DNA of 32,000 nt from Acaryochloris thomasi RCC1774 (GCF_003231495.1 NZ_PQWO01000032.1:7300-39299), one strand, 5' to 3'. Numbered from the stretch's first letter, positions 211 through 25,172 are shown. Made by a program: numbers and translations. Notes: a model not told the origin generated them from the letters alone.

Positions 211-248
211 TTCGACAGCTTTTTGCCCCACTTGCAATAGATAGATAT
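211..248 (+). promoter_or_regulatory. Copy 1 of the conserved bipartite motif (TTCGACAGCT-N11-TTGCAATAGATAGATA)
   Basis: ACAGCT at 215-220, TTGCAA at 232-237 and TAGATAGATA at 238-247. It is near-identical to six other copies in the window and points into the plus-strand gene block. Confidence 0.6.
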
Positions 249-446
249 CACAACCAACTTGTTTGGCGCATAAGCCCAGCAGATTAGTTTTTGTTGGCAG
301 AGAGTCGGTGCGTAACCCGACTCATATTTTCAAGCCACTTAGAGCAATTGCTCAGCGATCGCTCCGAGTGGGGAGAGAAGGCCGTTGGTCTGCTAAGGCA
401 TAGCCTTCGATTGCTGGAAACACCCAAGTCAGTCGGAGGACGACCA

Positions 447-686
447 ATGGCAATTCCAGCGCACATCTGGAACAAGCACTTTCCTGAGAGTAATGCTGTG
501 GTGCCCGAGCCGCAGTATGCGATCGGCGAGGAGGTTTACCTGAAACTTTGCCCAGAGAGGAGGTTTATCGTGATTCGGAACTACATAGCCTACGAACAAC
601 CGACGTCAGCCGGTGAGCGATGGCTAGAGTTATCGAGCTGCGATCGTCCTGCTTTCTGGAAAGAGAATCAGCTCCAGCGTGTGTAG
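447..686 (+). CDS. Hypothetical small protein (79 aa)
   Basis: ORF track gives 291..686. ATG 447 follows GGAGGA with 6-nt spacing, while the 291 TTG has no RBS and its N-terminal extension does not look protein-like. A hairpin GAGTCGG/CCGACTC lies in the leader at about 301-323. Confidence 0.5.
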   Translation: MAIPAHIWNKHFPESNAVVPEPQYAIGEEVYLKLCPERRFIVIRNYIAYEQPTSAGERWLELSSCDRPAFWKENQLQRV

Positions 687-751
687 ACGATAGGAGCCTG
701 TGGTTATTCCACGGGTTCCTATGACCACCGTAATAAATATTGGAGAATGAA

Positions 752-1285
752 ATGAGTACTCAACTGATTACAGCTTTATCAACTGTCATTAACCAGCTAG
801 AGAATGGTATCCGCTATCAAGTCTCTCGTGGGCTGCTGGATATGAAGAAAATGGACAGCACAAAGTACTGCCTAACCTCCCATTTGGTCAGTGCTCTAAC
901 TGACTTTAGCAATGTCACTCTTGAGCAGAAGCTATCGGATGGCCCCATTGGTCTAATTGCTGGGAACCTGTCATGGAAGACGGCAATGCAGTTTTGGGAC
1001 GAATATCATCATCTATTGCAGCCAGGGATGGGCCTCTATGAGGTGTGGTCGTCTATTCAGTCTGCGGGCTTGACTCCTCAGGATCTAGAGGAGCTGGAGT
1101 TGCTAGGAAATCAACAGGTGAAGGAGCACTTGGGCGTACCTTCTGGGTATTACCTGGATAGCGATCGCTACGAGGTGGTGCTGAGGTACCTGACAGCATG
1201 GCGCGATCTTCTTTCAGAGAGTATTTCTCAGTCTCATGCGATCGATGGTGGCACTCAAAAGCAGCTAGCTGCTACGGCGTCTTGA
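752..1285 (+). CDS. Hypothetical protein (177 aa)
   Basis: ORF track gives 740..1285. ATG 752 follows GGAG at 742-745. No family recognised. Confidence 0.6.
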   Translation: MSTQLITALSTVINQLENGIRYQVSRGLLDMKKMDSTKYCLTSHLVSALTDFSNVTLEQKLSDGPIGLIAGNLSWKTAMQFWDEYHHLLQPGMGLYEVWSSIQSAGLTPQDLEELELLGNQQVKEHLGVPSGYYLDSDRYEVVLRYLTAWRDLLSESISQSHAIDGGTQKQLAATAS

Positions 1286-1380
1286 CTTGGTTGGAGTGAA
1301 CCTGGATAAGGCGAATCGTATTATTGCTTATCGAAAAGGAGTATTCATTCGCCTTCAACAACGTCAGCGGAGTAATTCAC

Positions 1381-1656
1381 ATGCATATTTTATTCATCAC
1401 AGAAGATAGGCAGCAGCTTGAACAATCGTTGTCTCTCGACGATAGATTCACCGATTTATTCGCCCGACACCCGCTGTCTGCTCAGGAAGTACGGTTGATT
1501 GTCAATGGACGCAAGTACAACACCTGTTGTACTTGCGTTGCGACTCCTGTGGAGGCAGCAGCTTTGCCTGAGTTGGCTGTTGCGAATCTGAGAATGAATG
1601 AGGCTGGGGAGACTGCGATCCCAACTTCCTTGGATCTAGGAGGGCTGATCTCATGA
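1381..1656 (+). CDS. Hypothetical small protein (91 aa)
   Basis: ORF track gives 1324..1656. ATG 1381 follows GGAG with 8-nt spacing. Its stop overlaps the next start (ATGA at 1653-1656). Confidence 0.5.
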   Translation: MHILFITEDRQQLEQSLSLDDRFTDLFARHPLSAQEVRLIVNGRKYNTCCTCVATPVEAAALPELAVANLRMNEAGETAIPTSLDLGGLIS

Positions 1657-1841
1657 GGCACTTGGATTTGCTTGGGAGAGTGGGTAGTGGGAAATCTGTA
1701 TGCATCAGTACCCAATTGCAAGACTCACGAAGCGACAACAGCGCACCACTGCCTTTCGGTGGTTCGGCTGCTGTTGAGGCTGCAGACCTGCCTCCGGTGG
1801 CTTTGGACGATCTGCGGGAAAAGGGGACGCTTGATGAGTGA
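1653..1841 (+). CDS. Hypothetical small protein (62 aa), translationally coupled
   Basis: It overlaps the upstream gene by ATGA and the downstream start by 8 nt (ATGAGTGA). It shares the motif VEAAxLPxxAxxxL with the preceding protein. Confidence 0.45.
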   Translation: MRHLDLLGRVGSGKSVCISTQLQDSRSDNSAPLPFGGSAAVEAADLPPVALDDLREKGTLDE

Positions 1842-2151
1842 TTTCTTCGGCATAGCATCAAGGCGATTGTTGGGTCTCGTTGAGCAAATGGCTGATGAGT
1901 CCAGTGAATCTGCTGTGGCTATTCTAAGGTCGCCAGACTTGCGAGATCGCCTTGTTTCTTCTGACGATGGCGTGGTTTTGGAGACCCAGATTAGGCCGGA
2001 TGGCATTCATCGGACTGTACTTGGTTCCGATAAGAATTTTTTCGCGAATATTGCCTCCGGTCCTGGTCGCAACACCTTCGATGGGATCGTGGCTGGTGCA
2101 TTGAGGTTGGTAAGTGAGAGCGATGGAGAAGGAGTGCGACCATGCAGATAG
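1834..2151 (+). CDS. Hypothetical protein (105 aa)
   Basis: ORF track gives 1672..2151. ATG 1834 sits in an overlap with the upstream stop and follows AAGGGGA. Its 3' end overlaps the ATG at 2142. Confidence 0.5.
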   Translation: MSDFFGIASRRLLGLVEQMADESSESAVAILRSPDLRDRLVSSDDGVVLETQIRPDGIHRTVLGSDKNFFANIASGPGRNTFDGIVAGALRLVSESDGEGVRPCR

Positions 2152-3674
2152 TGGTACAGAAAATAGGTGACAGCAGCGTTTTGGTGACACCTGACGGCCA
2201 GCCAATCCCATACGTTGATTGTGACGATTGGACGCTTCATTTGATGCCCCAGATTTTGATAAACAGTCGGGTTTCCTCCGTCTCTCTGATTAGGGCGAAT
2301 CTGAAGTTGAGGAATGATGGCGCAGGTCCATTAGGGTTGCCGCATTTTACCTTTCATAACGTCCTGCCCATCGACGTTCAGATCACTCAGCCCTTCCCTA
2401 ACGAGAGCTTTTATGTCGCTGGGAGTGTTGATCGCAAGATGGGTTGGGAGTTTCCATTGCTAGAGAATCAGACCTGGGCCGAATTGTCTTTAACTTGGGA
2501 AGTTGATCAGAATCAGCCTTGGACGATCCATCACCGCATCAGATTCAATTTGGAGCATACACAGCAGGGTCATCTCTTCTCAATGGCGAGTGCCAACACT
2601 ATGTTTGGCATCAATTCTCAAAATGCGAAGGCGATCGCGCACTTCGATGAATCATCACTGGGTCATACATTCGCGAAAAGCGATGATTCGTTTCACTGCA
2701 GATTTGATAAAAGTCACTTCCGTATTGATTTTGAGCAGACACTTGACCTCCAAAGCCATGCCTGGAGTGACGTGCCCCACCTTGAGTTGCTTGAGAATCA
2801 AACCCAGCTCCACAATATCGAGCCAGCTACAACGTTTTCGACCTATCGCAAAGAGCATCTTTCTTGTGCTTGTTTAGAGATCCCCTCTGACGTTTTGCTT
2901 GAAGCCGTAGAAGATGCGCGACAAGAGACTCATTCATTGTCAGCGGGTCAGTACCACACTTCAAAAGCAGTGCGAAAGATTTGCGACTGGTGGAACCAGA
3001 ATGCCCCGGTCGAATCCTTTCGCCATGCGGGAGGCGTCGAGATTTGGTGTCGGGTCGAAGATGGTCCTGAATATTGGTCGGCTCAGGAGGAACGACCTGA
3101 AACAGATATCAAGTGCCTCTTAAAGCTAGACCCGAACACCTGTGCCCGTTTTGGCGATCACTTTTTGATTTACTTCCTAGAGAAGCCATCGGAGAATCGC
3201 ATCGACGATAACGATACTCGCTATATCAACTATGTCGATGGAACAAGTTGCACGAATATCTGGGATGAAGTCGAATATAGCTACTTCTCTTGGCAGAGCT
3301 TGTCTGTACTTCCTACGATGTTTCCGGTTGCTTATGAGCAAGTGTTGGCTAAGGGATACAGCCTTACTTCGCCAGAGCGTTTAATTTCTCAGTACCAGAG
3401 TGGAGAGCGTCGTTTTCCGATCCTCGCGCTAAGAGGCGCTAACTTTTCTGGGATGGATTTACGAGGCATCGATTTATGGGAGAGCGATCTGCGGGGTGCC
3501 AATTTTAGTGGTGCGAACCTTGAAGGTGCATGTCTGGTGGGTTGTGATTTGCGAGGGGTAGATTTCTCGTATGCCAATCTATCGCGCACTGATCTTCGTA
3601 ATGTGTGGATTAAAGCCACGAATCTCTATGGGGCCAATCTAGAGGGGGCAGATCCTTGGCCTCCAGGTGCTTAA
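2142..3674 (+). CDS. Large protein with an unknown ~420-aa N-terminal region and a C-terminal pentapeptide-repeat domain
   Basis: The C-terminus reads ANFSGMDLRGIDLWESDLRGANFSGANLEGACLVGCDLRGVDFSYANLSRTDLRN, a classic A(D/N)LXX tandem repeat. GAAGGAG lies 7 nt before the ATG. Confidence 0.85.
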   Translation: MQIVVQKIGDSSVLVTPDGQPIPYVDCDDWTLHLMPQILINSRVSSVSLIRANLKLRNDGAGPLGLPHFTFHNVLPIDVQITQPFPNESFYVAGSVDRKMGWEFPLLENQTWAELSLTWEVDQNQPWTIHHRIRFNLEHTQQGHLFSMASANTMFGINSQNAKAIAHFDESSLGHTFAKSDDSFHCRFDKSHFRIDFEQTLDLQSHAWSDVPHLELLENQTQLHNIEPATTFSTYRKEHLSCACLEIPSDVLLEAVEDARQETHSLSAGQYHTSKAVRKICDWWNQNAPVESFRHAGGVEIWCRVEDGPEYWSAQEERPETDIKCLLKLDPNTCARFGDHFLIYFLEKPSENRIDDNDTRYINYVDGTSCTNIWDEVEYSYFSWQSLSVLPTMFPVAYEQVLAKGYSLTSPERLISQYQSGERRFPILALRGANFSGMDLRGIDLWESDLRGANFSGANLEGACLVGCDLRGVDFSYANLSRTDLRNVWIKATNLYGANLEGADPWPPGA

Positions 3675-3727
3675 GAACCATGTATTGAGATATTTGTGTC
3701 AACAACAAGTTTGGAGAATGTGAACGT

Positions 3728-4345
3728 ATGCAATCAACTAATGCCAAAGCCTCTACGCCAGTTGACGAGATCCTTCTGCCAGCTCAGGCTGCGGCGTTCC
3801 TGGGTGTGACGGAGGAGCAGTTGCACAATGCTGTGTGCCAGGGTTATCTACCTGGGGCTTGCATTGATGGTCAGTGGCGGTTTAGCAAGCGCGGGCTGAG
3901 TAAGTTCTGCTGGCAAAGAAACAATCACAACGGTTCCGCGCCCTGGCTTGAGAACTCCTGTGGTCCCTACTGGTTGGGCGATTGGGCTGAACAAAAGGCA
4001 AAAGGTGTGATCGAGGCTTATGAGGCAGGGGAAAGATACTTCCCTGGACTCTCCATAAAAGGTGGACGTTTTGATGGTCAGGATCTTAGTGGTATTGATT
4101 TTTGGGAGTCCGGCTTGAAGGGTGCAAGCTTTTCTGGATGTATTCTCAAGCAGGCCATTTTTGTTGGTGCGGATCTTACCTCAGCCGTATTCAGGAATGC
4201 AGATCTATCCGATGCAAACCTTGAGGGAGCTGTGGTTGAGGATGCTGACTTCAGTGGAGCTATCCTGAATCGGACTAACTTTGCGGTCAGCTTGATGAGT
4301 GGAGCAAAGCTAGATGGAGTCAGTATCAGCATGGTCTCCTTCTGA
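3728..4345 (+). CDS. HTH (excisionase/MerR-like) fused to a pentapeptide-repeat domain
   Basis: The N-terminus LLPAQAAAFLGVTEEQLHNAVCQGYLPGACIDGQWRFSKRGL resembles excisionase-type HTH domains. The C-terminus has GQDLSGIDFWESGLKGASFSG...ADLSDANLEGAVVEDADFSGAIL repeats. Confidence 0.8.
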   Translation: MQSTNAKASTPVDEILLPAQAAAFLGVTEEQLHNAVCQGYLPGACIDGQWRFSKRGLSKFCWQRNNHNGSAPWLENSCGPYWLGDWAEQKAKGVIEAYEAGERYFPGLSIKGGRFDGQDLSGIDFWESGLKGASFSGCILKQAIFVGADLTSAVFRNADLSDANLEGAVVEDADFSGAILNRTNFAVSLMSGAKLDGVSISMVSF

Positions 4346-4417
4346 CGGTTCGACTCTTGTGAGCAACAGTATTCACCCCGGTTCATTTTCGTTCTTTGTG
4401 TCTGGAACTGAGTTTAT

Positions 4418-5089
4418 TTGTGTAATGTAGTTGGAGCATGGCAGCTAGTGGAGTTAATCGACAGAAGCATTGCTGTGTCAGGGTCGAGTGAGATAAACCT
4501 TGAAGATGCTATATCCCTAATTAGTCTGGACAAAGAGCATATCCTCTCTGATGTAGGTAGGGGGAGGATAAAGGCAACTCGTGTGAATGGTGAATGGATG
4601 TTCGATCGTCAGGATTTATGTGTCTATCAGTACTACTACTATCCAGATTGTGATCAGTTAGAGCCATCAACTCTCTCTTTCCCGACGCCTTTGACCCCGG
4701 AGTCTGTATGGCGTGAGTACCAGCGAGGAGCGAGAGATTTCTCTTGCAGAGCAGTGAGCAACAATGCTGATTTTTCGTGTAAGTCATTGCCAGAAATTGA
4801 CTTTAATTATTCAAAGCTTGCGGGTGTTAACTTTGAAGGCTCAGACCTGAGGCAAGCCAACTTTCGCGATGCCAATATGTTTAGGGTCAACATGAGAAAT
4901 ACAAAGCTGGCTGGGGCTAGCTTTGAGGGCGCTGAACTGCGAATCGTAGACTTCTCTGGTGCAGACCTAACCAATGTTAATTTCGGTGGTTCAAAAATCG
5001 GAAAGATTCAGCTCCAAGACGCAATCATTCGGAACACCCAGTTTTTCGAGGGAATTCTGTTGACAACAGTAAAGCCAGATTATCGGTAG
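4418..5089 (+). CDS. Second HTH plus pentapeptide-repeat protein, a paralogue of 3728..4345
   Basis: ISLISLDKEHILSDVGRGRIKATRVNGEWMFDRQDL parallels the HTH segment of the neighbouring protein. The C-terminus has VNFEGSDLRQANFRDANMFRVNMRNTKLAGASFEGAELRIVDFSGADLTNVNF repeats. The start is uncertain (TTG 4418 or GTG 4448). Confidence 0.75.
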   Translation: MCNVVGAWQLVELIDRSIAVSGSSEINLEDAISLISLDKEHILSDVGRGRIKATRVNGEWMFDRQDLCVYQYYYYPDCDQLEPSTLSFPTPLTPESVWREYQRGARDFSCRAVSNNADFSCKSLPEIDFNYSKLAGVNFEGSDLRQANFRDANMFRVNMRNTKLAGASFEGAELRIVDFSGADLTNVNFGGSKIGKIQLQDAIIRNTQFFEGILLTTVKPDYR

Positions 5090-5109
5090 ATCGGTAGAGA
5101 GGAAATTCG

Positions 5110-5493
5110 ATGATTCAAGTTCCATCAGTAGAGCGGCAGATACCTCGGTACTGGTCTTCCAGTAAGCCAAAGTACCCTCTCCATGTGAGAACGGTGACTA
5201 TAACAGGGCACAGTGGTTTCATAACGGGCGTGGAGCAGTGTTTCTCAAGTGAGGGGATTGTATGGCGATACCAAATAACTTCCATTGAAGGCAGCGAAGT
5301 CATTGTTTGGGATGACAATGGAGAGAAGGTGATAGATATTGCCCCAGATTCCAATCGTGATATCTACCAGCCCTCTTCAGAATTGGTAGCTCATCTCACG
5401 TCATTTGCCGATGAGCTTGAGCAACAAGAATTTAAGCGGGAACAGGAATCAGAACAAAAGGTTGATGAGGGTTTTGGTATTGATGATGACTGA
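5110..5493 (+). CDS. Hypothetical protein with an acidic C-terminus (127 aa)
   Basis: GAGAGGAAA precedes the ATG. It is the last gene of the plus-strand block. Confidence 0.6.
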   Translation: MIQVPSVERQIPRYWSSSKPKYPLHVRTVTITGHSGFITGVEQCFSSEGIVWRYQITSIEGSEVIVWDDNGEKVIDIAPDSNRDIYQPSSELVAHLTSFADELEQQEFKREQESEQKVDEGFGIDDD

Positions 5494-5497: not shown

Positions 5498-5806
5498 TTA
5501 ACCCCCCAACCCCCAGCACACCCCCAGCATCAGCCGACACCAGAGGTGCGCCAGCCGCTGCAGCAGGTTTGGGTACTTCCCCAGTCGTTGGGTACGGACG
5601 CGATCGCCCCAGCCGAGCCAGCGATGGATGAAGCGGTGGGAGCCGGGAGCCAGCGGGAGTAGGTCGATTCCGATCAGCTCGTGGCCGTATCTACGGTAGT
5701 TCGTATGGTGGACATGCGCGTACTTATAGGTGCGTTTCCAGGGGCACAGAGCGCAGCGGTAGTTCCAGCGCTTGAGCGTTCGTTTTCTCAGTTCAACTGC
5801 CGTCAT
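5498..5806 (-). CDS. Degenerate HNH-type nuclease-like protein
   Basis: It has the first CxxC and the His-His of an HNH motif (CALCP...HVHHTNYRRYGHE...DLLPLAPGSHRFIH). The second Cys pair is replaced by Ala and Ser. Confidence 0.5.
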   Translation of the reverse strand: MTAVELRKRTLKRWNYRCALCPWKRTYKYAHVHHTNYRRYGHELIGIDLLPLAPGSHRFIHRWLGWGDRVRTQRLGKYPNLLQRLAHLWCRLMLGVCWGLGG

Positions 5807-5842
5807 AGTCTCTGTGTATCTTCTTCTTGGTACCCTGTCAGC

Positions 5843-6211
5843 ATGAGGCGAAAGATACCGCTAATGGATAAGGCGATCGCAAGTCTGTCGCTGCTGGGCG
5901 TTGTTCTGATTTTGGTTGCGGCATATCGTAATTTCTTGATCAATGGGACGCTTGCCACAATCGGCTTCCCGAGTCTGATGATGGTGGGCGTATTTTTCAC
6001 CCTGCCAACAGTTGAGCTATATCGATACCGGCAGATAAAACCACTGGGTATGTCCTTTCGGGCTGTCATGGTTCTGATCGCAGATCGTTTGTTTTCCGGT
6101 GATCAGCAGTTCGCTTCGATCTACTGGGAGATAGCCGCCGTTGCGATCGCCCTGCTGTTTGTCTTTTATTTCCCTCGGTTGTGGGGAATGGTAGCTCGTA
6201 AAGTTTATTGA
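5843..6211 (+). CDS. Small integral membrane protein (122 aa, 3-4 hydrophobic helices)
   Basis: ORF track gives 5681..6211. ATG 5843 avoids overlapping the opposite-strand HNH ORF. Hydrophobic stretches include LLGVVLILVAAY, LMMVGVFFTL and IAAVAIALLFVFYF. Confidence 0.55.
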   Translation: MRRKIPLMDKAIASLSLLGVVLILVAAYRNFLINGTLATIGFPSLMMVGVFFTLPTVELYRYRQIKPLGMSFRAVMVLIADRLFSGDQQFASIYWEIAAVAIALLFVFYFPRLWGMVARKVY

Positions 6212-6459
6212 AATTCACTGATTAACCAGGACTTGTAGCGCTCAACTAAGGCCCGGATAAAGGCCCATTCTTCATCACTGGGATCTGAGAGAACGCCCAG
6301 GTTTTGCCAGCCCCTTTCATAGCAGCGCAACATATCAAAGGGTTCCAAGGACTTCAGCTTTTCCTTATCCGCTTGCCAGCTAATAGCTTCAAGGAAAGGG
6401 AGCTGTTCTGGAATATCGATTGCGTCCATTCGTTTGATCATTTCGTGCTTTTGCTCCAT
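6205..6459 (-). CDS. Hypothetical protein (84 aa) downstream of the relaxase
   Basis: ORF track gives 6205..6567. The internal ATG 6459 lies 20 nt after the relaxase stop and avoids an 89-nt overlap with it. Confidence 0.45.
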   Translation of the reverse strand: MEQKHEMIKRMDAIDIPEQLPFLEAISWQADKEKLKSLEPFDMLRCYERGWQNLGVLSDPSDEEWAFIRALVERYKSWLISEFQ

Positions 6460-6478
6460 CTTGGCAAATTTCCTCGCA

Positions 6479-12233: not shown

Positions 12234-12237
12234 TCCA

Positions 12238-16000: not shown

Positions 16001-16024
16001 GCGCTCTACTTAGGTCTGTCCATT

Positions 16025-17857: not shown

Positions 17858-17904
17858 AGCGTTTGACAGGATTTTGGAATTTTTACTAATTGAGGAATTT
17901 CCCT

Positions 17905-18288: not shown

Positions 18289-18319
18289 CAGCTTTTTTGG
18301 CTTTTGCAATAGATAGCTA
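18287..18319 (+). promoter_or_regulatory. Copy 6 of the bipartite motif
   Basis: AACAGCTTTTTTGGCTTTTGCAATAGATAGCTA. TTGCAA is at 18304-18309. It again begins in a GATTAACAG stop context. Confidence 0.6.
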
Positions 18320-18355
18320 GGGGAACTCCCTAAAGCCGAACTCAATCCATAAGCT

Positions 18356-20509
18356 ATGAACCGATTTTTCTTCACCACCTTACTCCTCACCTCTGTTGGT
18401 CTAACGACCCCGCTATCTGCCTTGCGGGTGAATGCTCAGCAGTCTTCAGGTCTGCCCTTAACCATTGAGGGCGGTCACGGTACGAAAAAGACGATGACCG
18501 TCTCATTAGAGCAGAAGCCAACGAAGAACCTAGGCTTGAACTTGAAGGTCAAGGGTGCTGAAGGTGCCCAGGAAGGCTGGCTCTATGTCAACGGTCAGGT
18601 CGTTGCTCCGCTTTTCTCTTGGTACGCCAATCCATCCAACCGCAACCAGATTGCATCCGTTCGGCTGGTGACGCCTGGGGCAGTTTGGCGGGCCGGTCTC
18701 AACGATGTCACCTTTGTCGCCCGCAACAACAATACGTTTAAGGTACTCACCGCTAATACTTACGAAACCGAGCGTAAGACCCATTTCACAAACATAGCGA
18801 ATCGCAATCGAACATCAACGATCTCAGCCCGAAGGCCAGTCAGACGCAGCTCGTCCTACACCTTGACCCAAGCGCCGCAAGCGATCGCCACCGCATCGGT
18901 GGGCAGAAAGACACTGACGTTAACGGACTTGATCGCCACTGTTACCCAGCCTCACGACGTTCCTGCTCCGGGAGTTCCACAAAGTTTTGATTTCCAGCAA
19001 TACCCCAGACCTAGTGTTGCGTCACGGCCTGAGCGATTGGATCAGCCACTTCCAGCCGGTTCTGGCTACGTCAATACCTGGAATCATATCGATTCCCTGC
19101 AGAGGGATGCAGCCCCGAACGTCAAAGTAGAGATGGGCAGCATGTTCTTATCTTTCTTCAAGGATGGCAAGTGGCATACAACAGAGATGGGACCGCCGTG
19201 CCGTGCCTATACCTATGAATATCCAACGATAGGCACGGGTAAAGATACCGATGTTGCTGCTTGCGAGAACGGGGCTGCTTTTGCGGGGCTAGGTCTAAAG
19301 GGCTGGAATAAGCCAAATCGCCATACCCACGGCTGGGTTCAAAACGGCAGAGTTGGCGTGAATTCTGAAGATGTTGAGCACTTTATGGTTTGGGCCTCTG
19401 CTCGGACTCAACCGATTGACCCGGGTAAGCCTGCAAATCTTGATGGGCAGAACTACCAGTATGGGATTGGCGGGGATTACTTCAATTCTGATGAAGGTCG
19501 GGGTCGCAAGGCAGCGGTTCACTCCAGACGCCAGATCGTAGGCAGTCAATGGAAAACGCTGGTGGGTCACAACATGACGCCGCAAACCATCAAAACGATG
19601 TGCGCTCAGGGTAATTTGCCGTCAGAGCTGCCGCTGGTCGGTGGATGCAGCAGTTCTTCGGGGGCGTTTCGTGCCGGTACGAGCAGTACCCCGAATCCAT
19701 CGCCGAAATCCCTTGCTAAAGCCACGGGTCAAAGCTCTCGAACTCAGACGGCTTCAGTACCTTTCAAGCGCACAGGAACCGGAGTGCTGACGCTCACTCA
19801 ATTAAGAGATGCGGTGACTAAGCCCCACGAGCAAGCTCCGGCACCGACTGTCCCTAGCAGCTACTGCCAAGCCTATAACGGCAAACCAAGCACCCTCAAT
19901 CATCCCAGCAACTCAAGCTGTAAGAATGAATTTGGTGATGATCAGTTCAAAAAGTACCGAACGATAAACCCTTGGTTTGTGGCCTACAGCCGCACAAAAA
20001 CACCGGACACCATTGAAATGGGGGATATGTACATTTCAGTTCTCAAGCGGGGCGTGTGGACAACTCACAACTTTGGCCCACCGGGTCAGGCTTATTTATT
20101 TAAGACAGAATCCCTCAACAAGCGGGAGGCGAAAGATGTTGCCACCCTCGGTAACGGTGTCTCGAAGCTGGGATACGGGTTAGATAAATGGCAGAATCCT
20201 GCGCTCAGCGCCCACGGCTGGCCGGGTCCACATTGGGATATCGCGCTCAATGATGCTGAGCACATGATGGTGTGGGTCGATGCTAGAACCCAGAAGGAAG
20301 GCACTCATGCTGTCGGTGCCGGTCTGGACCTGCGGGACAATGTGCTCAAAACAGGTCTGCCAGCGGCCATCAGAACCCGCCAACGTTTCCTTGGTCCCCA
20401 GTGGACAACGATTGTGGGTCACAATATCCACCCTGACCAGCTCGCAACTATCTGTCAGAAGTATGGGTATCCCAGTGCCTTGAAGGTTGAGGGTTGTCCC
20501 CAGCAGTAG
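18356..20509 (+). CDS. Secreted protein (717 aa) with a signal peptide and an internally duplicated ~250-aa domain
   Basis: Signal-like N-terminus MNRFFFTTLLLTSVGLTTPLSALRVNAQQ. Two homologous halves share LTLT.L...VT.PH, EMG.M(F/Y).S..K.G.W.T...GPP..AY, HGW, EH.MVW..ARTQ and W.T.VGHN..P....T.C. Confidence 0.75.
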   Translation: MNRFFFTTLLLTSVGLTTPLSALRVNAQQSSGLPLTIEGGHGTKKTMTVSLEQKPTKNLGLNLKVKGAEGAQEGWLYVNGQVVAPLFSWYANPSNRNQIASVRLVTPGAVWRAGLNDVTFVARNNNTFKVLTANTYETERKTHFTNIANRNRTSTISARRPVRRSSSYTLTQAPQAIATASVGRKTLTLTDLIATVTQPHDVPAPGVPQSFDFQQYPRPSVASRPERLDQPLPAGSGYVNTWNHIDSLQRDAAPNVKVEMGSMFLSFFKDGKWHTTEMGPPCRAYTYEYPTIGTGKDTDVAACENGAAFAGLGLKGWNKPNRHTHGWVQNGRVGVNSEDVEHFMVWASARTQPIDPGKPANLDGQNYQYGIGGDYFNSDEGRGRKAAVHSRRQIVGSQWKTLVGHNMTPQTIKTMCAQGNLPSELPLVGGCSSSSGAFRAGTSSTPNPSPKSLAKATGQSSRTQTASVPFKRTGTGVLTLTQLRDAVTKPHEQAPAPTVPSSYCQAYNGKPSTLNHPSNSSCKNEFGDDQFKKYRTINPWFVAYSRTKTPDTIEMGDMYISVLKRGVWTTHNFGPPGQAYLFKTESLNKREAKDVATLGNGVSKLGYGLDKWQNPALSAHGWPGPHWDIALNDAEHMMVWVDARTQKEGTHAVGAGLDLRDNVLKTGLPAAIRTRQRFLGPQWTTIVGHNIHPDQLATICQKYGYPSALKVEGCPQQ

Positions 20510-20510: not shown

Positions 20511-21698
20511 TCAGTCAATTTCCCAGCCGTCGTCTTCGACCTCGATCTCCGGGTCGATCTCTGAGTAGCGTTCTGGGAAAAGCTCCTGTTCATAGGACTC
20601 GAACATTCTGATATCTTCAGAGGTCACCGCATATTGAACTCTGTCGTTTGTCTCAGTGAAAATAACGCCCCGTTCATCTGTGGCTGAGATAGTGAGCTTA
20701 TCGTCTGAGAACTCAAGCACATAGTCGTCGTTAACCAGTCGATTGACTCCCTTGTCTTTGGCCTCTTCCCGATAGAAGTTTGCGACATCTGAGAAGGTTT
20801 CAATCGTGCTTTGATCTAGCTCATTGTCCTTATCGAGTGCTGGCTCTGGTGCTGGGTAAACCCACGGCTCGATTTCCCTGCCGCTTACCTGTGAGACCAG
20901 TCGTTCGAGTAATGTTGCCATCTGGAAGGGGCCAACGCCACCCGGTACCGGCGTCAAATGCTGGGGAATGTCGTAGGCAGAGCGACTGACATCACCGCGA
21001 GGTTTTCCTTCGCCGGGAATGAAGCCTGCATCGACGACTAGGCGGTGTTCGGGGATGATGTGTTGCTCATCCAAAAGCTCGGGTGTACCTGTGGCTGAAA
21101 CGACGATATTCGCTTTACGGGTTTGGGTTTCGTCATCTCCGATTTCGATTTCTATGGTGTCGATACCAGCTTCTTTGAGGAGTTTGACGACTCCTTCGCC
21201 CACGTAGCCGCCAGCGCCAACGACAGCTACGGTATCTCCTTCCTGAGCGAAGGATTCGACTAAGCGGTAAATTGTCTCAGAAGTAGCCGAGGTAGGGAAG
21301 TAGGGATTATCGCTGCGCATCCCATCGATGTCTTTCTCGAAAGAGATTTGCGGTAGTAGCTTCTTTAAGTCGTCAGGAATTGGATTCTGGACAATCAAAC
21401 CAACAGAGTTTGCATTGGCCTCTATCAATAGATTCCTAAAGACATCCGGCGTAGTGAGAGAATCAAGTATAGGTTGTTTAACTTGACAGCCAAGTGCTGA
21501 AAATGTTTTCGCTTTATGCTCTGTCGAAAATCGAGCGGCTTCGTATTTTGCAAGTTCAATGGGGTCTTGTTCTGTTTCAGGCGGTAGGAAGCGAATAATT
21601 GTTACCTGTTCCTGGTTGCAGATGTTTTGAAACTCAGCCAGCCTGGATTTAACTTGTTTGAGGATAGAACTACCGTTGACTTTAGATGTCACGGGCAA
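20511..21698 (-). CDS. FolD-like (methylene-THF dehydrogenase/cyclohydrolase fold) protein with a ~110-aa acidic C-terminal extension
   Basis: LTPVPGGVGPFQMATLLERLV matches the FolD signature TPVPGGVGPMT. DIDGM and VAVVGAGGYVGEGV match the DVDG and NAD(P)-binding segments. The start is TTG 21698 or GTG 21692. The canonical PCTP segment reads PTSA here. Confidence 0.7.
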   Translation of the reverse strand: MPVTSKVNGSSILKQVKSRLAEFQNICNQEQVTIIRFLPPETEQDPIELAKYEAARFSTEHKAKTFSALGCQVKQPILDSLTTPDVFRNLLIEANANSVGLIVQNPIPDDLKKLLPQISFEKDIDGMRSDNPYFPTSATSETIYRLVESFAQEGDTVAVVGAGGYVGEGVVKLLKEAGIDTIEIEIGDDETQTRKANIVVSATGTPELLDEQHIIPEHRLVVDAGFIPGEGKPRGDVSRSAYDIPQHLTPVPGGVGPFQMATLLERLVSQVSGREIEPWVYPAPEPALDKDNELDQSTIETFSDVANFYREEAKDKGVNRLVNDDYVLEFSDDKLTISATDERGVIFTETNDRVQYAVTSEDIRMFESYEQELFPERYSEIDPEIEVEDDGWEID

Positions 21699-22170
21699 GA
21701 ACTTCCAAAATATCTGCTACAGGAGAGAGTCTAATTTTGGTGTTCAGCTCTTCCACTTCATTGGGCCTGAGAACCCACCATTCAGCGCTCCAGGGTTCTA
21801 TATGCTCAGGTAGAGGCCACGGTAACGTAACCCGCAGCCATCGCTCTGGCGTGGTCTGGTTCTCGTAGGTATTGGCCTGTGAAAATCTTCCGTAGTGACA
21901 GATCCATGTCACCTTCTGAGTGTTCGCCTCATTTAAGTAGATAGGGTATTGTTCTCGGACGGCGAGGGCTAAAGCTTCAAAGTCGATTGAGACATCATGC
22001 TCCATCGATTTGTTGCTGTGCAGGCCAGAAGCAACAACAATGACTTCTTCTTTCTGTTCGTCCCTATAAATTCTCAAGAGACAGTGACACGAAGCATCTT
22101 CTTCCCGCCAGTGAAAGAGGGTCTCCACCACTGGCGCTAGCTTGTCTGTCTTGACGACTTGATTAACCAT
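21682..22170 (-). CDS. Hypothetical protein (162 aa)
   Basis: ORF track gives 21682..22344. ATG 22170 follows GGAGG with 7-nt spacing. It overlaps both neighbours (8 nt and 17 nt), suggesting translational coupling. Confidence 0.6.
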   Translation of the reverse strand: MVNQVVKTDKLAPVVETLFHWREEDASCHCLLRIYRDEQKEEVIVVASGLHSNKSMEHDVSIDFEALALAVREQYPIYLNEANTQKVTWICHYGRFSQANTYENQTTPERWLRVTLPWPLPEHIEPWSAEWWVLRPNEVEELNTKIRLSPVADILEVLARDI

Positions 22171-22999
22171 TGGCTGACCTCCGAAATCCGGGTATCGATA
22201 CTTGAGCCTTGTCCTGATACTTGCAGATGGCCTCGGGCATCCAGTCTGCCCAGCCTTGCGCCATTCCATCATACCCGTGACGCCCCTTGTAGAGCTGCTG
22301 TAGCTCCTGCGCCCACTGCCCATAGTTTGAGCGACCGATTTCACCTTCAGAGGTCTGCACGTAATCTACCAGCACTTGAGCGTTAAGTCCTATCTCCCGG
22401 CCACCGGCCACGCACTGAACAAAGTACTCATAATCGCAGAATACCCGGTAGTCAGGGTTCCAGTGGGGTGCCCCCTGGCGTCGGTGGGTGAACCCGTTGC
22501 TATCGAACAGCGATCGCTGAGCAATCAGGTCCGCGATTGTGTCATCTGCCTGGGGTGAGATAAAAGGCTTTCCTGTTTTGACCACTTGCCCTTCGCTGAT
22601 CACGTCTCGCCGTCGCCACTGCTGCGGCAAACAGCCGAAGTGCTTAGGGTGTTGCTCAAACCATTGGAGCGTATTGGCGACAAACTCAGGTCTTAGCTCG
22701 TTGTCATCATCGAGGTAGCAGACGAGATCGCCCTGAGCGTTATCAATACCGAGGTTACGAGCAATGCATAGGCCGAAGCCATCTTGAGGGTGATCGATTT
22801 CGATGTAGTGGGTGTGGAAGGGAAATCTTGAGTTTTGCAGTAGGTCTCGGGTGGTGAGGTCTTTGCCGTCATTGATGACGACCCACTCAAAATCGAGACA
22901 GGTCTGATGGAGCAGGCTGGGGAGTGCGATCGCTCGAAGCAGATCGGGGCGGTGGTGGGTAGCAGTGATGATGGATAGAGTGAATGGCTGTTCTCCTGT
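22163..22999 (-). CDS. Family-2 (GT-A) glycosyltransferase with no canonical start codon
   Basis: My translation upstream of the listed ORF (22163..22630) reads FTLSIITATHHRPDLLRAIALPSLLHQTCLDFEWVVINDGKD...ARNLGIDNAQGDLVCYLDDDNEL, a typical GT2 N-terminus with a DxD motif. The frame is open from 22999 with AGGAG at 22997-22993. The first in-frame ATG, GTG or TTG is at 22630. Confidence 0.65.
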   Translation of the reverse strand, partial: TGEQPFTLSIITATHHRPDLLRAIALPSLLHQTCLDFEWVVINDGKDLTTRDLLQNSRFPFHTHYIEIDHPQDGFGLCIARNLGIDNAQGDLVCYLDDDNELRPEFVANTLQWFEQHPKHFGCLPQQWRRRDVISEGQVVKTGKPFISPQADDTIADLIAQRSLFDSNGFTHRRQGAPHWNPDYRVFCDYEYFVQCVAGGREIGLNAQVLVDYVQTSEGEIGRSNYGQWAQELQQLYKGRHGYDGMAQGWADWMPEAICKYQDKAQVSIPGFRRSANG

Positions 23000-23105
23000 T
23001 TAGATGTAGAAACTTTCCAGTCTCTTCAGCATAAGCATTCATGCATTGTCAGGCTCTATAAATTGACCCGTCCGTTTTGTTCGTGAATCTGTATGACAAA
23101 TGTAG

Positions 23106-23294
23106 ATGTCAATATTGGTGAACCAAATGAAACAAGATCAAGACCATAGCCAGAGCAAGTCTAAAGTTCAGCAGATAACCGACTTTATCGTAATCGCGAT
23201 GCTTGTCTTTCCAATTGCAGGCTGGTTGGGTAACTTGCTTCAGCCAGCGCCACCCGATAATCAAGTTCCGGCTGCATGGAGTGACGAGCGCTAG
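23106..23294 (+). CDS. Possible small membrane protein (62 aa)
   Basis: One hydrophobic segment (FIVIAMLVFPIAGWLGNLL). No clear RBS. It is an isolated plus-strand ORF between minus-strand operons. Confidence 0.25.
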   Translation: MSILVNQMKQDQDHSQSKSKVQQITDFIVIAMLVFPIAGWLGNLLQPAPPDNQVPAAWSDER

Positions 23295-23332
23295 CAATAA
23301 TCAAGTCTGAAGCCTGTCCTACTGTGGTTGTG

Positions 23333-23497
23333 TCAAGCTTCAGGTTTTCCCCTCTCCTGTGCCCTCTCCTGCGCTGCCACAGCCCTCGCCTCAGCATTCC
23401 TCTGGTTCCACTGCTGTCGGGTTTCGTCGGGGTTGGTGGACTTGGGTGGTGCAAATGTTCGGTGGCTGTAGTTGCCTCTGCCTTCTTTAGCTTTCAT
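23333..23497 (-). CDS. Possible small basic protein (54 aa) coupled to the kinase stop
   Basis: ATG 23497 overlaps the kinase stop codon region (ATGAAAGCTAA). No family recognised. Confidence 0.3.
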   Translation of the reverse strand: MKAKEGRGNYSHRTFAPPKSTNPDETRQQWNQRNAEARAVAAQERAQERGKPEA

Positions 23498-24599
23498 GGT
23501 GTTCATTCGTAGGTTGTCTTGATGTGAAGGCTCTAACGGCACTGATTAAAAACAGTCCAATGAAGAGCCATTGAGAGGTATTCATTGCGGTTGAAGTGAT
23601 CTTTGAGAACCCAGGAATATCAAAGACATCTGATGTATTCAAAACTATTGGGCGCATGATGATTACTGTCCCTACACCGCAAGCCGCTGCTGCAGGGGTA
23701 GCAAATCTTGCGAGAGTGGTTTGCTCATCTTGTCTTGCGAGGGCGCTGATTTCCTCGTCCCGCGCTAATTGACTCTCCTCTTTCTTTGTGATGTCTGCAG
23801 GATCAGCCTCCTTAAGCGCTTGGAGTGCAGCATCTGCCGACTGAAAACGTCGTCCTAGAACATCATCGATCATCTTATCGAGGACATCTGCGAACTCTTC
23901 GCGGACTGGTTTCCCGGCCAGCTCAAGCCGCCACTGCAGAGCGCCGGTCATTGGGTCTGCTGCAATGCTCATTGGGCTGGTGCCAGTAAGCAGATGAATG
24001 CAAGTCATTCCCAGGCTATAGATATCACTAGCAAAGGTTGTTTTACCTCGCATCTGCTCAGTTGAGGCATAGCCCACTGAACCGATCATGGTGCCGGTTT
24101 TAGCTAGCACCGTCTCTGAAACTCGCTTTGCAGCTCCGAAGTCCACCAATACCAGCGCACCGTCGCTCTGTCGTCGAATGATGTTGGCGGGCTTGATATC
24201 GCGGTGAATGACCCCGCTGCCGTGCAAGTAGCGCAGTAGCGGCAAGATGCCCTTTAGTAGGCTGTCGATCTCCTCTTCAGTAAAAGTTTGACCTTTCTGG
24301 AGGCTTTGCTGCAGGCTTTCTCCAGCGATGTACTCTTGAACGATAAATAACCTGCTACCTTCCTCGAAGAAGTCGTAAAACTCGGGAATCTGGGGATGTG
24401 TGCCCACTTCTTTGAGTCGTTCGGCTTCTTGACGGAATAGCTGGGTGGCCTGCTCTGAAGCATTTTCCTGAGACGGCGCGAATTCTTTGATAACACAGCG
24501 CTTTCGGTTGCTGGACTCGGCCAGATACGTTTTTCCGAACCCGCCTTTGCCTAGCTCTCTGATGATTCGATAGTTGTTGAGCAAAATTGTTGAGTTCAT
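23487..24599 (-). CDS. Hanks-type Ser/Thr protein kinase with a C-terminal hydrophobic anchor (370 aa)
   Basis: LGKGGFGKTYLA (Gly loop), VIKEF (catalytic Lys), HRDIKPANII, DFGAAK and GSVGYASTEQ. ORF track gives 23487..24719. ATG 24599 lies 8 nt after the upstream stop. The C-terminus has the hydrophobic segments VGTVIIM and WLFIGLFLISAV. Confidence 0.85.
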   Translation of the reverse strand: MNSTILLNNYRIIRELGKGGFGKTYLAESSNRKRCVIKEFAPSQENASEQATQLFRQEAERLKEVGTHPQIPEFYDFFEEGSRLFIVQEYIAGESLQQSLQKGQTFTEEEIDSLLKGILPLLRYLHGSGVIHRDIKPANIIRRQSDGALVLVDFGAAKRVSETVLAKTGTMIGSVGYASTEQMRGKTTFASDIYSLGMTCIHLLTGTSPMSIAADPMTGALQWRLELAGKPVREEFADVLDKMIDDVLGRRFQSADAALQALKEADPADITKKEESQLARDEEISALARQDEQTTLARFATPAAAACGVGTVIIMRPIVLNTSDVFDIPGFSKITSTAMNTSQWLFIGLFLISAVRAFTSRQPTNEHHES

Positions 24600-24606
24600 G
24601 CTTTTT

Positions 24607-24903
24607 TTACTCGCTCTTTTGGGCTTGATGCTTCTTGACTTTTCCGGCCAGTGTCTTGAGTTGAGAGCGCAGCTCCTCAATACTTTGACACAGCCTTCGC
24701 TCCTCTCCTCGAAGCGCACTGAGAACAGTTGTCCGCGACATTTCCTTTACGGCTTTCCAGAGTAGTTCGTTGGCCTGCTGTGGCTTTGCTTGGGCGGCAT
24801 TTGTAAGCAAGCCAGAGATTAGGAGGCTTTGAGTTTCTGGCAGCAGCTCTAGATTGATATCAGCTTGCGTATGAGTAGCGGGGCTGTGCTTAATAGCCTG
24901 CAT
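24607..24903 (-). CDS. Hypothetical protein (98 aa) with a coiled-coil C-terminus
   Basis: ORF track gives 24607..24984. ATG 24903 gives a 14-nt overlap with the upstream gene. Confidence 0.45.
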   Translation of the reverse strand: MQAIKHSPATHTQADINLELLPETQSLLISGLLTNAAQAKPQQANELLWKAVKEMSRTTVLSALRGEERRLCQSIEELRSQLKTLAGKVKKHQAQKSE

Positions 24904-25117
24904 AATCAACCTCGCATGGCCTGATCTTGATTGGAATATCTTTGACTTGCAGGTGAGCGGAGTAATATCTCCAGGCATCATCACAGGCTCGAAGCTCAGC
25001 TCCTGGCTGCACTAGGTTTTCGTTGAGTGCTTGAGCGTTATTTGAAAGCTTTTCCAGTACGCTATCGAAAGGGACCGGAGCTTTTTTGACCTGATCGTTG
25101 ATTCGGAATTGCGCCAT
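24890..25117 (-). CDS. Small protein (75 aa) homologous to the N-terminus of 25176..25688
   Basis: ORF track gives 24890..25222. ATG 25117 follows AAGGAAAG and lies 31 nt after the TTGCAA of motif copy 7. ALNENLVQPGAELRA...AW..Y parallels ALNESLLAPDAHHRA...GW..Y. Confidence 0.55.
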   Translation of the reverse strand: MAQFRINDQVKKAPVPFDSVLEKLSNNAQALNENLVQPGAELRACDDAWRYYSAHLQVKDIPIKIRPCEVDYAGY

Positions 25118-25136
25118 TTGTCTTTCCTTGGGTCTT

Positions 25137-25172
25137 TCTACTTGTCTATTGCAACTGCGGCAAAAAGCTGTT
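25137..25172 (-). promoter_or_regulatory. Copy 7 of the bipartite motif, heading the kinase operon
   Basis: The minus strand reads AACAGCTTTTTGCCGCAGTTGCAATAGACAAGTAGA. TTGCAA is at 25154-25149. It starts 4 nt after the stop of the upstream gene. Confidence 0.6.

Follow-up and report, generated by a model that had tools for sequence, protein, structure and literature searches.

Seven copies of one bipartite motif head blocks of co-directional genes on a small plasmid-like element, a contig of Acaryochloris thomasi RCC1774 that carries a MOBF (TrwC) relaxase, and the same motif precedes orthologous genes in related elements. The window, meaning the whole stretch of DNA analysed, covers 32 kb of this 39.3-kb contig. 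The consensus of the seven window copies is (G/A)ACAGCT with a T-run, a gap of 10-11 nt and then TTGCAATAG(AT)nnnTA. Judged from sequence, the motif very probably functions as a promoter. We give about an even chance to the fuller reading, in which it is a family-specific unit promoter of co-regulated operons, read with a dedicated factor that is likeliest an alternative sigma.

To define the copies, we searched the whole window for TTGCAATAGATAGATA with up to three mismatches. Exactly seven matches were obtained, at +232-247, -10481-10496, +11437-11452, +15985-16000, +17842-17857, +18304-18319 and -25139-25154, and these are the seven copies that the first-pass annotation had listed. Shuffled sequences gave 0.23 matches per shuffle, and none of 100 shuffles gave seven or more. 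A weight-matrix scan with 44 columns, of the kind that the annotation had proposed for the whole replicon, was bimodal: the seven copies scored 39-51 bits and the next-best site in the window 8 bits, and weak extra copies are therefore absent from the window. The upstream half, (G/A)ACAG(C/G)(T/A) plus T-run, was found in all seven copies. The T-rich gap between it and TTGCAA measures 11 nt except in copies 5 and 6, where it is 10 nt; both values are within the range first described. Every copy lies between genes, with ~86% of the window coding (0.14^7 ~ 1e-6), and points toward the gene that follows. The start codons lie 34-63 nt past the first T of TTGCAA (28-57 nt past its end), with Shine-Dalgarno sequences before the downstream starts where visible. 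On placement, orientation and distance the earlier description was thus accurate.

Similarity between the copies ends at the motif edges. Outside the motif, pairwise identity is at the random level (0.14-0.39), and the 7-nt spacer is also close to random between copies, except for copies 5 and 6, whereas the two motif blocks are 80-100% identical among the window copies. This conservation of blocks amid random flanks and spacers points to selection and not to recent duplication. Copies 5 and 6 are clear duplicates, but a recent duplication without shared function, or a chance pattern, has virtually no probability as an account of the whole set and is refuted: chance is excluded by the shuffles and the weight matrix, and the motif has been kept although the AAA ATPases (and the relaxase of a related element, L041) have diverged by 14-26% in protein sequence.

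Copy 1 (212..248, + strand; TCGACA, 17 nt, CAATAG, with block TTGCAATAGATAGATA at 232-247) has a terminator-like hairpin with T8 directly upstream (175-198). Behind it lies unit 1 (291..5493, +), with eight co-directional ORFs. Three of these encode pentapeptide-repeat proteins, one of which is an HTH_17 fusion. Copy 2 (10480..10516, - strand; TCGACA-17-CAATAG, block TTGCAATAGATGAATA) heads unit 2 (5498..10462, -), which encodes a TrwC/MOBF relaxase with DUF3854 and three small ORFs, one of 102 aa with an HNH-like Cys/His pattern recognised by eye; the relaxase starts with an ATG at 10462, 34 nt past T1 of the copy. Copy 3 (11417..11453, +; ATAACA-17-CAATAG, block TTGCAATAGATATATA) heads unit 3 (11476..13554, +), composed of the HTH-like gene A paralogues (88 aa and 139 aa) in a StbA-like position, gene B (195 aa) and a 242-aa ORF. 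Units 4-6 span 16025..20509 (+). Their heads are copy 4 (15965..16001, +; TCGACA-17-CAATAG, block TTGCAATAGATAGATA), before a 115-aa membrane protein and the AAA ATPase; copy 5 (17823..17858, +; TTAACA-16-CAATAG, block TTGCAATAGCTAGGTA), before a 132-aa membrane protein; and copy 6 (18285..18320, +; TTAACA-16-CAATAG, block TTGCAATAGATAGCTA), before a 717-aa protein with a signal-peptide-like N-terminus. The -35 slot of copy 5 overlaps the AAA stop codon. In both copy 5 and copy 6, GGATTAACAG contains the stop of the preceding gene, at 17824-17826 for the AAA gene and at 18286-18288 for the 132-aa gene. These two copies are 89% identical over 38 nt, spacer and stop context included, which bears out the proposal that gene end and motif were duplicated jointly. 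Copy 7 (25138..25174, -; TCAACA-17-CAATAG, block TTGCAATAGACAAGTA) lies directly against the stop of the gene before it and heads unit 7 (20511..25117, -), in which a 75-aa ORF, a Ser/Thr kinase and several further ORFs run co-directionally to a gene for a FolD-like protein.

Four related elements (L035, L036/L041, L042/L043 and L044), known from partial contigs, contribute seven more copies, again before orthologous genes. This supports the view that the copies are heads of transcription units. The AAA ATPases are 74-86% identical between the window and the related elements, and the relaxase of L041, the one relative relaxase sampled, is 77% identical. The relaxase promoters, as we read them, are the most diverged pair: the orthologue of copy 2 in L041 has no more in common with it than RACA, a spacing of 17 nt, TTGCAATAGAT and the YR step. 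The orthologues of copy 3 in L042, L043 and L044 have diverged flanks and a conserved Shine-Dalgarno sequence. In L035, the closest relative, copy 4 has its orthologue at +217 and copy 6 a diverged one at +2407 (TCGCAATAGGTAGCTA), while copy 5 and the 132-aa gene are both absent and constitute an insertion in the window relative to L035.

This indel would be compatible with a site that has no part in transcription, such as a relaxase/nic-like site, a recombination site bounding cassettes, a partition site or a three-frame stop, TAGnTAGnTAG. Copy 4 has TAG in all three frames and copy 1 the first two TAGs, and TTG..ATAG of the block loosely resembles the R388 nic region (TTGTCT/ATAG). We nevertheless regard such a site as very improbable, as neither the strict co-orientation nor the fixed distance to the start codon would be expected of it. 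Neither the second nor the third TAG is conserved, the second being a stop (TAG or TGA) in 6/14 copies from the window and its relatives and the third (TAG or TAA) in 10/14, and the centromere-like direct repeats GTRAGTCTTGGGR, six copies in the gap between relaxase and gene A, are a different sequence from the motif. A MOBF oriT nic site, with a GTATTGTCT/ATAG core and an inverted repeat in one copy near the relaxase, was also considered and rejected: there was no R388-like match beyond chance, and the block is present as seven oriented copies before genes with no hairpin beside it.

A more distant relative, L001 (relaxase 51% identical), has the same layout. Its cassette, TTGTCA-17/18-TATACT, is a textbook sigma-70 promoter sequence that occurs in five copies with an invariant 16-nt block, ACCCCTATACTTCATT. 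It stands at the positions of the window motif, upstream of the relaxase and of the gene A operon, and its -35/T-run half resembles that of the window motif. The same layout served by a sigma-70 cassette in this sister lineage strengthens the unit-head role and argues that the motif is a family-specific unit promoter.

We compared the 14 copies, seven from the window and seven from the partial contigs of the four related elements. Invariant among them are RACA in the -35 slot and, at a spacing of 17 (16) nt, GCAATAG as the occupant of the -10 slot, followed six bases on by a pyrimidine-purine step. The spacer to CAATAG is 17 nt in 12/14 copies and 16 nt in 2/14, within the 16-18 nt of sigma-70 promoters. 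The likeness to a -35 box with CAATAG at 17 nt, as first described for TCGACA and TTAACA, therefore holds as geometry, except that the spacing is 16 nt in copies 5 and 6 and that ATAACA and TCAACA also occur. TCGACA, a 5/6 match to TTGACA, is found in 5/14 copies, three of them in the window, and the remaining copies match at 3-5 of 6 positions; the conserved part of the slot is ACA, compared to TTG in typical sigma-70 sets. We infer that nnRACA, often TCGACA, would serve as a -35-like element, followed by a free-sequence spacer of 17 nt (16 in two copies). The invariant block TTGCAATAGAT would fill the extended -10, the -10 (CAATAG) and the discriminator, and transcription would likely start at the pyrimidine-purine step at block positions 15-16.

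The over-conserved block in the -10 slot is real, and so is the lack of a TAnnnT hexamer noted before. From -24 to +40 of the block's first T, a conserved TAnnnT is found in 0/14 copies, and TAnnnT of any kind is absent from 10/14. CAATAG, AATAGA and TAGATA are each without T(-7), and a sigma-70 consensus scan called none of the motif copies. Because TAnnnT is missing and a G is invariant at the place of T(-7), the primary sigma alone is unlikely to open this -10 slot. A sigma-54 promoter (TGGCAC-N5-TTGCA, with its GG and GC elements 10 nt apart) was rejected: TTGCA is present, but there is no GG at the required distance and the spacer is variable. Cyanobacteria are generally held to lack sigma-54.

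The main rival reading, to which we assign a distinctly lower but appreciable probability, is that each copy is an ordinary sigma-70 (SigA) promoter on which the operator of an element-encoded repressor overlies the -10, discriminator and start region. The invariant block would then be the operator, RNA polymerase would use TCGACA and a TG-extended AATAGA, and the copies would form a negative-feedback plasmid-wide regulon like that of R388 or RK2. The TG is correctly spaced upstream of AATAGA, and the 5/6 matches in the -35 slot are also in its favour. Most known plasmid-wide regulons are repressor-based. Known plasmid backbones depend on strong promoters held down by plasmid repressors (PMC3937220; for StbA, bioRxiv 10.1101/2022.04.29.490116). 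The L001 cassette has a canonical -10 and yet is invariant over 16 nt (ACCCC TATACT TCATT), more than RNA polymerase needs, which suggests an overlapping operator in that lineage. However, if SigA read the window motif, A(-11) and T(-7) should persist, in contrast to what the 14 copies show, and at G9 of the block, where one would expect T(-7) or an unconstrained base, no copy varies. The block also lacks the dyad (KorA/KorB or Xre type) or direct repeats typical of repressor operators. It is asymmetric, with TTGCAA as its sole palindromic part, and the bases that would extend a dyad (CTA before TTGCAA) are missing in all copies. There is one block per promoter and no second repeat 11 nt from it, unlike the StbA-type operator of R388 stbDR, which has two or more 9-bp direct repeats with an 11-bp period (bioRxiv 10.1101/2022.04.29.490116). 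Such asymmetry fits a sigma-like reading better than a dimeric operator. Moreover, no repressor gene tracks the block. Gene A is the only family that adjoins the block in all elements, and its L041 homologue is only ~19% identical to that of the window though the block is identical, which speaks against the small HTH paralogues as the binders that the first-pass annotation had put forward. No obvious block-specific operator-binding protein was found in the window.

R388 (IncW, MOBF) has six repressors, including StbA and ArdK, and RK2 (IncP) has KorA/KorB operators (PMC3937220). As in these plasmids, one short signal is repeated at many backbone operon promoters, here on a MOBF-relaxase element. 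A further parallel to R388 is the operon that diverges from the relaxase gene and has a small HTH-like protein at its head. The R388 StbA box, C/TTGCATCAT, slightly resembles TTGCAATAG of the window. However, R388 and RK2 combine ordinary strong sigma-70 promoters with separate operators (palindromes or at least two 9-bp direct repeats), whereas here the repeated unit is the whole putative promoter, with a single asymmetric block and a -10 slot without TAnnnT. The StbA-like protein of the window does not co-vary with the block.

The unusual block is in keeping with a dedicated factor, as had been suggested, but not with a phage-type polymerase as that factor. A promoter of a phage-type single-subunit RNA polymerase, or of another element-encoded polymerase outside the window, would explain why a near-invariant block of 11-16 nt ends at the putative start, as in T7-class promoters, and ~7 kb of the source contig is left for a gene. 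We consider it extremely improbable. One contiguous block of ~20 nt at a fixed register would be expected, whereas the motif has two parts, with free sequence in the spacer and a gap that varies by 1 nt. In addition, its upstream half is exactly at the -35 place, the sister lineage has a sigma-70 cassette at the same places, and no polymerase-like ORF is present in the 32 kb or the related contigs.

Promoter classes with a dedicated sigma of a mobile element or phage include those of SPO1 gp28 and gp33/34, T4 gp55, pBS32 SigN (Bacillus) and the clostridial TcdR/BotR/UviA group. The window resembles them in that genes of one element share a bipartite, highly conserved putative promoter, the -10 departs from TATAAT and other genes of the element are on housekeeping promoters. 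It differs in that no sigma gene was found in the window or related contigs; a sigma that reads the motif may be host-encoded. The sigma-28 (group-3 sigma) promoter consensus is TAAA-N15-GCCGATAA. Written as RACA-N15-TGCAATAG, the motif has the same geometry and a common -10 core, C.ATA, and it is likewise asymmetric with no need for T(-7); however, it has CAA for the critical CGA, and RACA takes the place of TAAA as the -35. The pilA1 promoter (TAGGC / GGTAA), the one cyanobacterial SigF promoter known to be characterised, is unlike the motif, and we take the sigma-28 likeness as a lead only. In the master-activator regulons SetCD/AcaCD of integrative and conjugative elements and IncC plasmids, the same activator-dependent promoter heads every transfer operon, so that the element is switched on as a block. 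The window shares the use of one promoter-like cassette at the heads of operons, but SetCD/AcaCD boxes take the place of the -35 beside a normal -10, whereas in the window motif it is the -10 that is odd and the -35 that looks normal.

The idea of an element-wide regulon was overstated, since other signals serve the switch/ArdC region (13.6-15.9 kb) and the region at 25.2-32 kb. At 15187..15238, and outside the motif family, two canonical sigma-70 promoters overlap, TTGACA-18-TATAAT and TTGTCA-17-TATGAT. They come with palindromic operators and are flanked by an 86-aa ORF and an Xre-type HTH_31 gene. Promoters matching the sigma-70 consensus at 12/12 and 10/12 positions were found only there. 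These promoters of the 15.2-kb Xre-type switch would use the housekeeping sigma.

For the motif itself, host RNA polymerase would most likely be joined by a dedicated specificity factor, likeliest an alternative sigma that is host-encoded or encoded outside the sampled DNA, and less likely an activator. Sigma-type promoters likewise tolerate a gap of either 16 or 17 nt, and the genus offers a precedent in pREB5, an Acaryochloris marina plasmid with an annotated sigma-70-family gene. Among the window ORFs (Pfam, NCBIfam, PHROGs; 32 kb of the 39.3-kb contig), and among the Pfam domains precomputed for the related contigs, there was no hit to a sigma factor, activator or polymerase. The housekeeping holoenzyme could nevertheless be what reads the motif, given a -35 slot that is reminiscent of TTGACA and a sigma-70 cassette in the sister lineage; it would then use TG at -15/-14 and a weak -10, AATAGA. 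As a unit promoter, each copy would launch one plasmid backbone or cargo operon, namely those of the relaxase, StbA-like/gene B, the membrane and AAA module, the 717-aa protein, the pentapeptide proteins and the kinase. With one cassette to launch each operon, the operons would form one co-regulated set, and at least seven operons of the element are probably switched on together by a dedicated factor.

The 16-mer TTGCAATAGATAGATA, allowing up to three mismatches, was matched exactly seven times in the 32-kb window, once at each of the places where the first-pass annotation had put a bipartite motif of ~37 nt (copies 1 to 7, at 212 (+), 10480 (-), 11417 (+), 15965 (+), 17823 (+), 18285 (+) and 25138 (-)). 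Dinucleotide-preserving shuffles gave a mean of 0.23 such matches and never reached seven. Alignment of the seven copies defined an upstream conserved half, (G/A)ACAG(C/G)(T/A) followed by a T-run, separated from TTGCAA by 10 nt in copies 5 and 6 and by 11 nt in the other five. Scored with a weight matrix derived from all seven, the copies reach 39-51 bits and the next-best site on either strand only 8 bits, indicating that the motif family is sharply bounded. Pairwise identity falls to random level beyond the ~37-nt motif and the 7-nt centre of the spacer is essentially random too, except between copies 5 and 6, which suggests that two short blocks stayed constant while their surroundings drifted. 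As had been proposed, all seven copies are intergenic and aimed at the next gene, in a window that is ~86% coding. The putative start codons lie 34-63 nt past the first T of TTGCAA, with a clear Shine-Dalgarno sequence in several cases. The genes that precede copies 5 and 6 have their stop codons within GGATTAACAG, also in agreement with the earlier reading. Directly upstream of copy 1, a terminator-like hairpin of nine pairs followed by T8 (175-198, +) insulates that unit. At 17863-17905, 40 nt past copy 5, the upstream half occurs once more (TTGACAGGATTTTGGAATTTT), followed by TACTAAT and an ATG at 17905; this more canonical -10 suggests a tandem second promoter for the gene of a 132-aa membrane protein.

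The window is a plasmid-like mobile element. Family matches among its ORFs include a TrwC/MOBF relaxase with a DUF3854 domain, ArdC, an AAA ATPase, pentapeptide-repeat proteins, a Ser/Thr kinase, a FolD-like protein, two DUF6876 proteins and an Xre-type HTH_31 protein, and many other ORFs are without any family match. Scans of the window for Rfam families and tRNA genes gave no matches. The relaxase is 100% identical to a protein of Acaryochloris thomasi RCC1774 whose gene is on a contig of 39.3 kb. No near-identical plasmid was found in PLSDB, where relatives of the relaxase are at most 37% identical. The ORF at 3728-4345 (+) has a weak, sub-threshold match to HTH_17 (MerR/excisionase-type; 24.3 bits against a cut-off of 27) followed by pentapeptide repeats, and is in an operon with two more pentapeptide-repeat proteins.

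Using the relaxase, the AAA ATPase and a family of small HTH-like proteins (gene A) as protein queries, we reached related partial contigs, which fell into two groups. The first group (L035, L036/L041, L042/L043 and L044) has AAA ATPases 74-86% identical to that of the window, and its sole sampled relaxase (L041) is 77% identical. These close relatives carry the cassette of the window upstream of orthologous genes: in L035 upstream of a membrane-protein/AAA pair and of a large secreted protein, in L041 upstream of the relaxase and as a tandem pair upstream of gene A, and in L042, L043 and L044 upstream of an 88-aa gene. The tandem duplication of the gene A cassette (L041, 2175-2300), in which two identical blocks lie 77 nt apart, explains why the Logan contig L036, from the same type of element, begins within the motif. 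In the 14 copies from the window and its close relatives, the ACA that ends the -35-like hexamer is invariant or nearly so; the hexamer is TCGACA five times and otherwise TTAACA, ATAACA, ATGACA, GCGACA, GTAACA, TCAACA or TTACCA. The distance from this hexamer to CAATAG is 17 nt, or 16 in two copies. Also invariant or nearly so is the run T-T/C-GCAATAG-A-T, and a pyrimidine-purine step (TA, CA or TG) occupies positions 15-16 of the 16-nt downstream block. The most diverged pair, the relaxase promoters of the window and L041, has nothing conserved beyond this 14-copy core, and the GCT and T-run of the window copies are not retained in L041. As read from these alignments, the phylogenetic footprint is a bipartite signal with promoter geometry: a -35 slot, 17 nt, a -10 slot, 6 nt and a putative start.

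The second group is the outgroup contig L001, whose relaxase is 51% and whose AAA ATPase is 43% identical to those of the window. We looked for TTGCAATAG in L001 and it was absent. L001 has its own cassette instead, in five copies at equivalent places, upstream of the relaxase, the gene A operon and three other units. This cassette is TTTTGTCAG-TTTTTGACCTC-ACCCCTATACTTCATT, that is, TTGTCA, 17 or 18 nt and TATACT. The upstream half and spacer are alike in the two lineages (TTGTCAGTTTTTGACCTCAC in L001 versus TCGACAGCTTTTTGCCCCAC in the window), and the 16-nt downstream block alone differs. Thus, this plasmid family uses a unit promoter copied ahead of each operon; in the L001 lineage the unit is a textbook sigma-70 promoter, and in the window lineage its -10 block has been exchanged. 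Judging by its position, its geometry, its conservation and its canonical homologue in L001, the cassette of the window is very probably a functional promoter, and the core interpretation of the first-pass annotation, a shared promoter-like signal that defines a regulon, describes a real finding. In a separate observation, the window (5498-5806, -; downstream of the relaxase gene) and L001 (8461-8769; immediately after the relaxase gene) share, at ~90% identity, a 102-aa ORF whose Cys/His pattern is HNH-like. With the adjacent relaxases only 51% identical, this suggests recent exchange or very strong constraint.

The exchanged -10 block is unusual. From -24 to +40 nt around its first T, no conserved TAnnnT was found in the 14 copies, and in 10 of them TAnnnT is wholly absent. 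In each of the registers CAATAG (17 nt), AATAGA (18), ATAGAT (19) and TAGATA (20), A(-11) and T(-7) never occur together, and a sigma-70 consensus scan called none of the seven window copies. The G at block position 9 is invariant. TTGCAA is the only self-complementary part of the block, which is otherwise asymmetric, and the distance between the two halves tolerates a 1-nt change. The loss of TAnnnT, the asymmetry and the flexible distance together fit a sigma-type factor better than a dimeric repressor. The block may instead be a repressor operator laid over a weak promoter; such regulation is a common plasmid design (PMC3937220), and an operator would account for the 16-nt invariance in L001, but it leaves the loss of TAnnnT in 14 of 14 copies unexplained, and we consider it rather unlikely. 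We favour over it a dedicated factor that would read the block, an alternative sigma or, less likely, an activator. This explanation, to which we give an even chance, accounts for both the TAnnnT loss and the asymmetry, and comes without a candidate gene. A phage-type polymerase, which had also been suggested, became unlikely on examination, there being no polymerase among the window ORFs. Sigma-54 and MerR-type long-spacer promoters were rejected on sequence grounds, and on the same grounds a nic site and a three-frame stop are unlikely readings of the motif, as, on examination, is a recombination site. Promoters of group-3 (sigma-28-type) sigma factors have the consensus TAAA-N15-GCCGATAA. 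Written as RACA-N15-TGCAATAG, the motif shares this geometry, but the key CGA is unmatched here, and the resemblance is only a lead.

No window ORF matched a sigma factor, an activator family or a polymerase in searches of Pfam (E-value cut-offs of 10 for ten ORFs and 0.01-0.05 for the rest), NCBIfam and PHROGs. Two gene A paralogues of 88 and 139 aa come first after copy 3, and members of the family also open the corresponding operon in L041 and L001. In the AlphaFold model of gene A, a small helical domain modelled with confidence (pLDDT 82-88) leads into a long basic helix. The Foldseek and PDB profile matches of gene A, all non-significant, included homeodomains, sigma region 4, the R388 StbA DNA-binding domain and an SSV1 protein, and many were helix-turn-helix or winged-helix DNA-binding domains. 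The small HTH/RHH proteins of the element had been put forward as possible binders of the motif. The gene A protein of L041 is only ~19% identical to that of the window while the promoter block is identical between them; given this lack of co-variation, we rejected the family as an unlikely reader of TTGCAATAG. Like R388 stbA, gene A is divergent from the relaxase gene and first in its operon, and we keep it as an StbA-like candidate. The relaxase gene and the gene A operon are separated by a gap of 1 kb with six direct repeats, GTRAGTCTTGGGR, that are reminiscent of the R388 stbS repeats (bioRxiv 10.1101/2022.04.29.490116). These repeats, G(T)RAGTCTTGGGR, lie at 10802-11303 (+), with only five weak matches elsewhere on both strands of the window; they may be centromere-like sites, iterons or accessory sites of oriT, perhaps serving the StbA-like product of gene A. 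The same gap holds a stretch of 36-37 nt (10898-10935) that is 97-100% identical to sequences on three Acaryochloris marina plasmids with no other relation to the window at the DNA level; in A. marina S15 it is within a row of small hypothetical genes. The gene for the reader of the block may lie in the host genome, on another replicon or in the ~7 kb of the contig beyond the window. An annotated sigma-70-family gene is present on the A. marina plasmid pREB5.

An exact pattern with 19 specified bases was run on genome and metagenome contig collections and returned 10 and 23 matches, respectively, all singletons. The number of genome matches is about the chance expectation, and we regard both sets as chance: most are on low-GC contigs, with no blastn or tblastn relation to the window. 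A looser pattern was run on viral contigs, and the 80 of 103 matching stretches that were listed were singletons save for one contig with two copies; on copy number and G+C only, these too were judged to be chance matches. The exception, an unrelated low-GC viral contig from IMG/VR (L082), has two identical copies of ...TTCACAAATAATGACTACCTTTGCAATAGATAATTA at ~574 and 7323 on the minus strand, probably its own repeated promoter, with GATAAT as -10, that matches by coincidence. Inspection of k-mers in 40 upstream regions of pREB5 revealed no unit promoter of this kind, the contexts of more distant AAA homologues (L038-L040) were unrelated and uninformative, and a literature search for the motif gave only results that were apparently unrelated by title. 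With the listed pattern matches confined to unrelated singletons and this one two-copy contig, the motif appears private to a small plasmid clade.

The regulon had been thought to be possibly element-wide. This is not strictly so, since the ArdC/switch region and the region from 25.2 to 32 kb use canonical switch promoters and a second repeat family. At 15187-15238, TTGACA-18-TATAAT (12/12, minus strand), the only perfect sigma-70 promoter in the 32 kb, overlaps TTGTCA-17-TATGAT (plus strand). Both overlap two palindromes, TATAAACTATCAGTTTATA and CATAAGCTTATG, in the gap between a gene for an acidic 86-aa protein (-) and the Xre-type HTH_31 gene (+; 14839-15867 in all). This looks like the classical genetic switch of the element, and its canonical promoters indicate that the host plainly uses E. 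coli-like promoters. In the second repeat family, a conserved leader, CTTCCGTAAACCCATCGCTACAGGGAAAAGGAGAAAGACCCATG, comes after a GC hairpin (GGGGCCATAGCGCCCC). Its members, at 14491-14562, 27320-27344, 27700-27770 and 27998-28049 (functional strand -), are directly upstream of ArdC, a DUF6876 gene, a 109-aa gene and one more unit, and pREB5 has a related string, GTCGCTACA, repeated ahead of small genes. The family may be a signal for expression or processing in a leading region. An 82-nt repeat occurs three times (29149-29230, 30873-30954 and 30963-31044; 76-87% identical), in each case next to a HIP1-like GCGATCGC site and at, or close to, the 3' end of a small ORF.

Plasmid backbones with a recurring regulatory signal are already known. 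What is new here is a whole promoter as the repeated unit, with a non-canonical, invariant -10 block and a lineage-specific swap against a canonical cassette. We tentatively suggest, as a possibility on the unlikely side, that this MOBF plasmid lineage replaced the housekeeping promoters of almost its entire backbone by a private class, RACA-N17-CAATAG-N6-YR, read by an undescribed sigma or sigma-like factor of the host, the plasmid or a co-resident plasmid, while the sister lineage keeps TTGTCA-17-TATACT. If true, cyanobacteria would gain their first defined promoter consensus for a factor of this kind, along with an orthogonal promoter/factor pair. A dedicated factor would likewise offer a ready-made orthogonal expression switch for cyanobacteria and an entry point to the timing of plasmid transfer, while a repressor operator over a weak promoter would be one more case of the negative-feedback design of R388 and RK2. 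To our knowledge, hardly any work exists on how cyanobacterial plasmids are regulated. In this plasmid family, the operons of the backbone programme are marked by one compact cassette, which gives precise predicted starts and a testable consensus, and the same cassette architecture with different -10 blocks in two related lineages is a natural experiment on a replicon-wide swap of promoter specificity.
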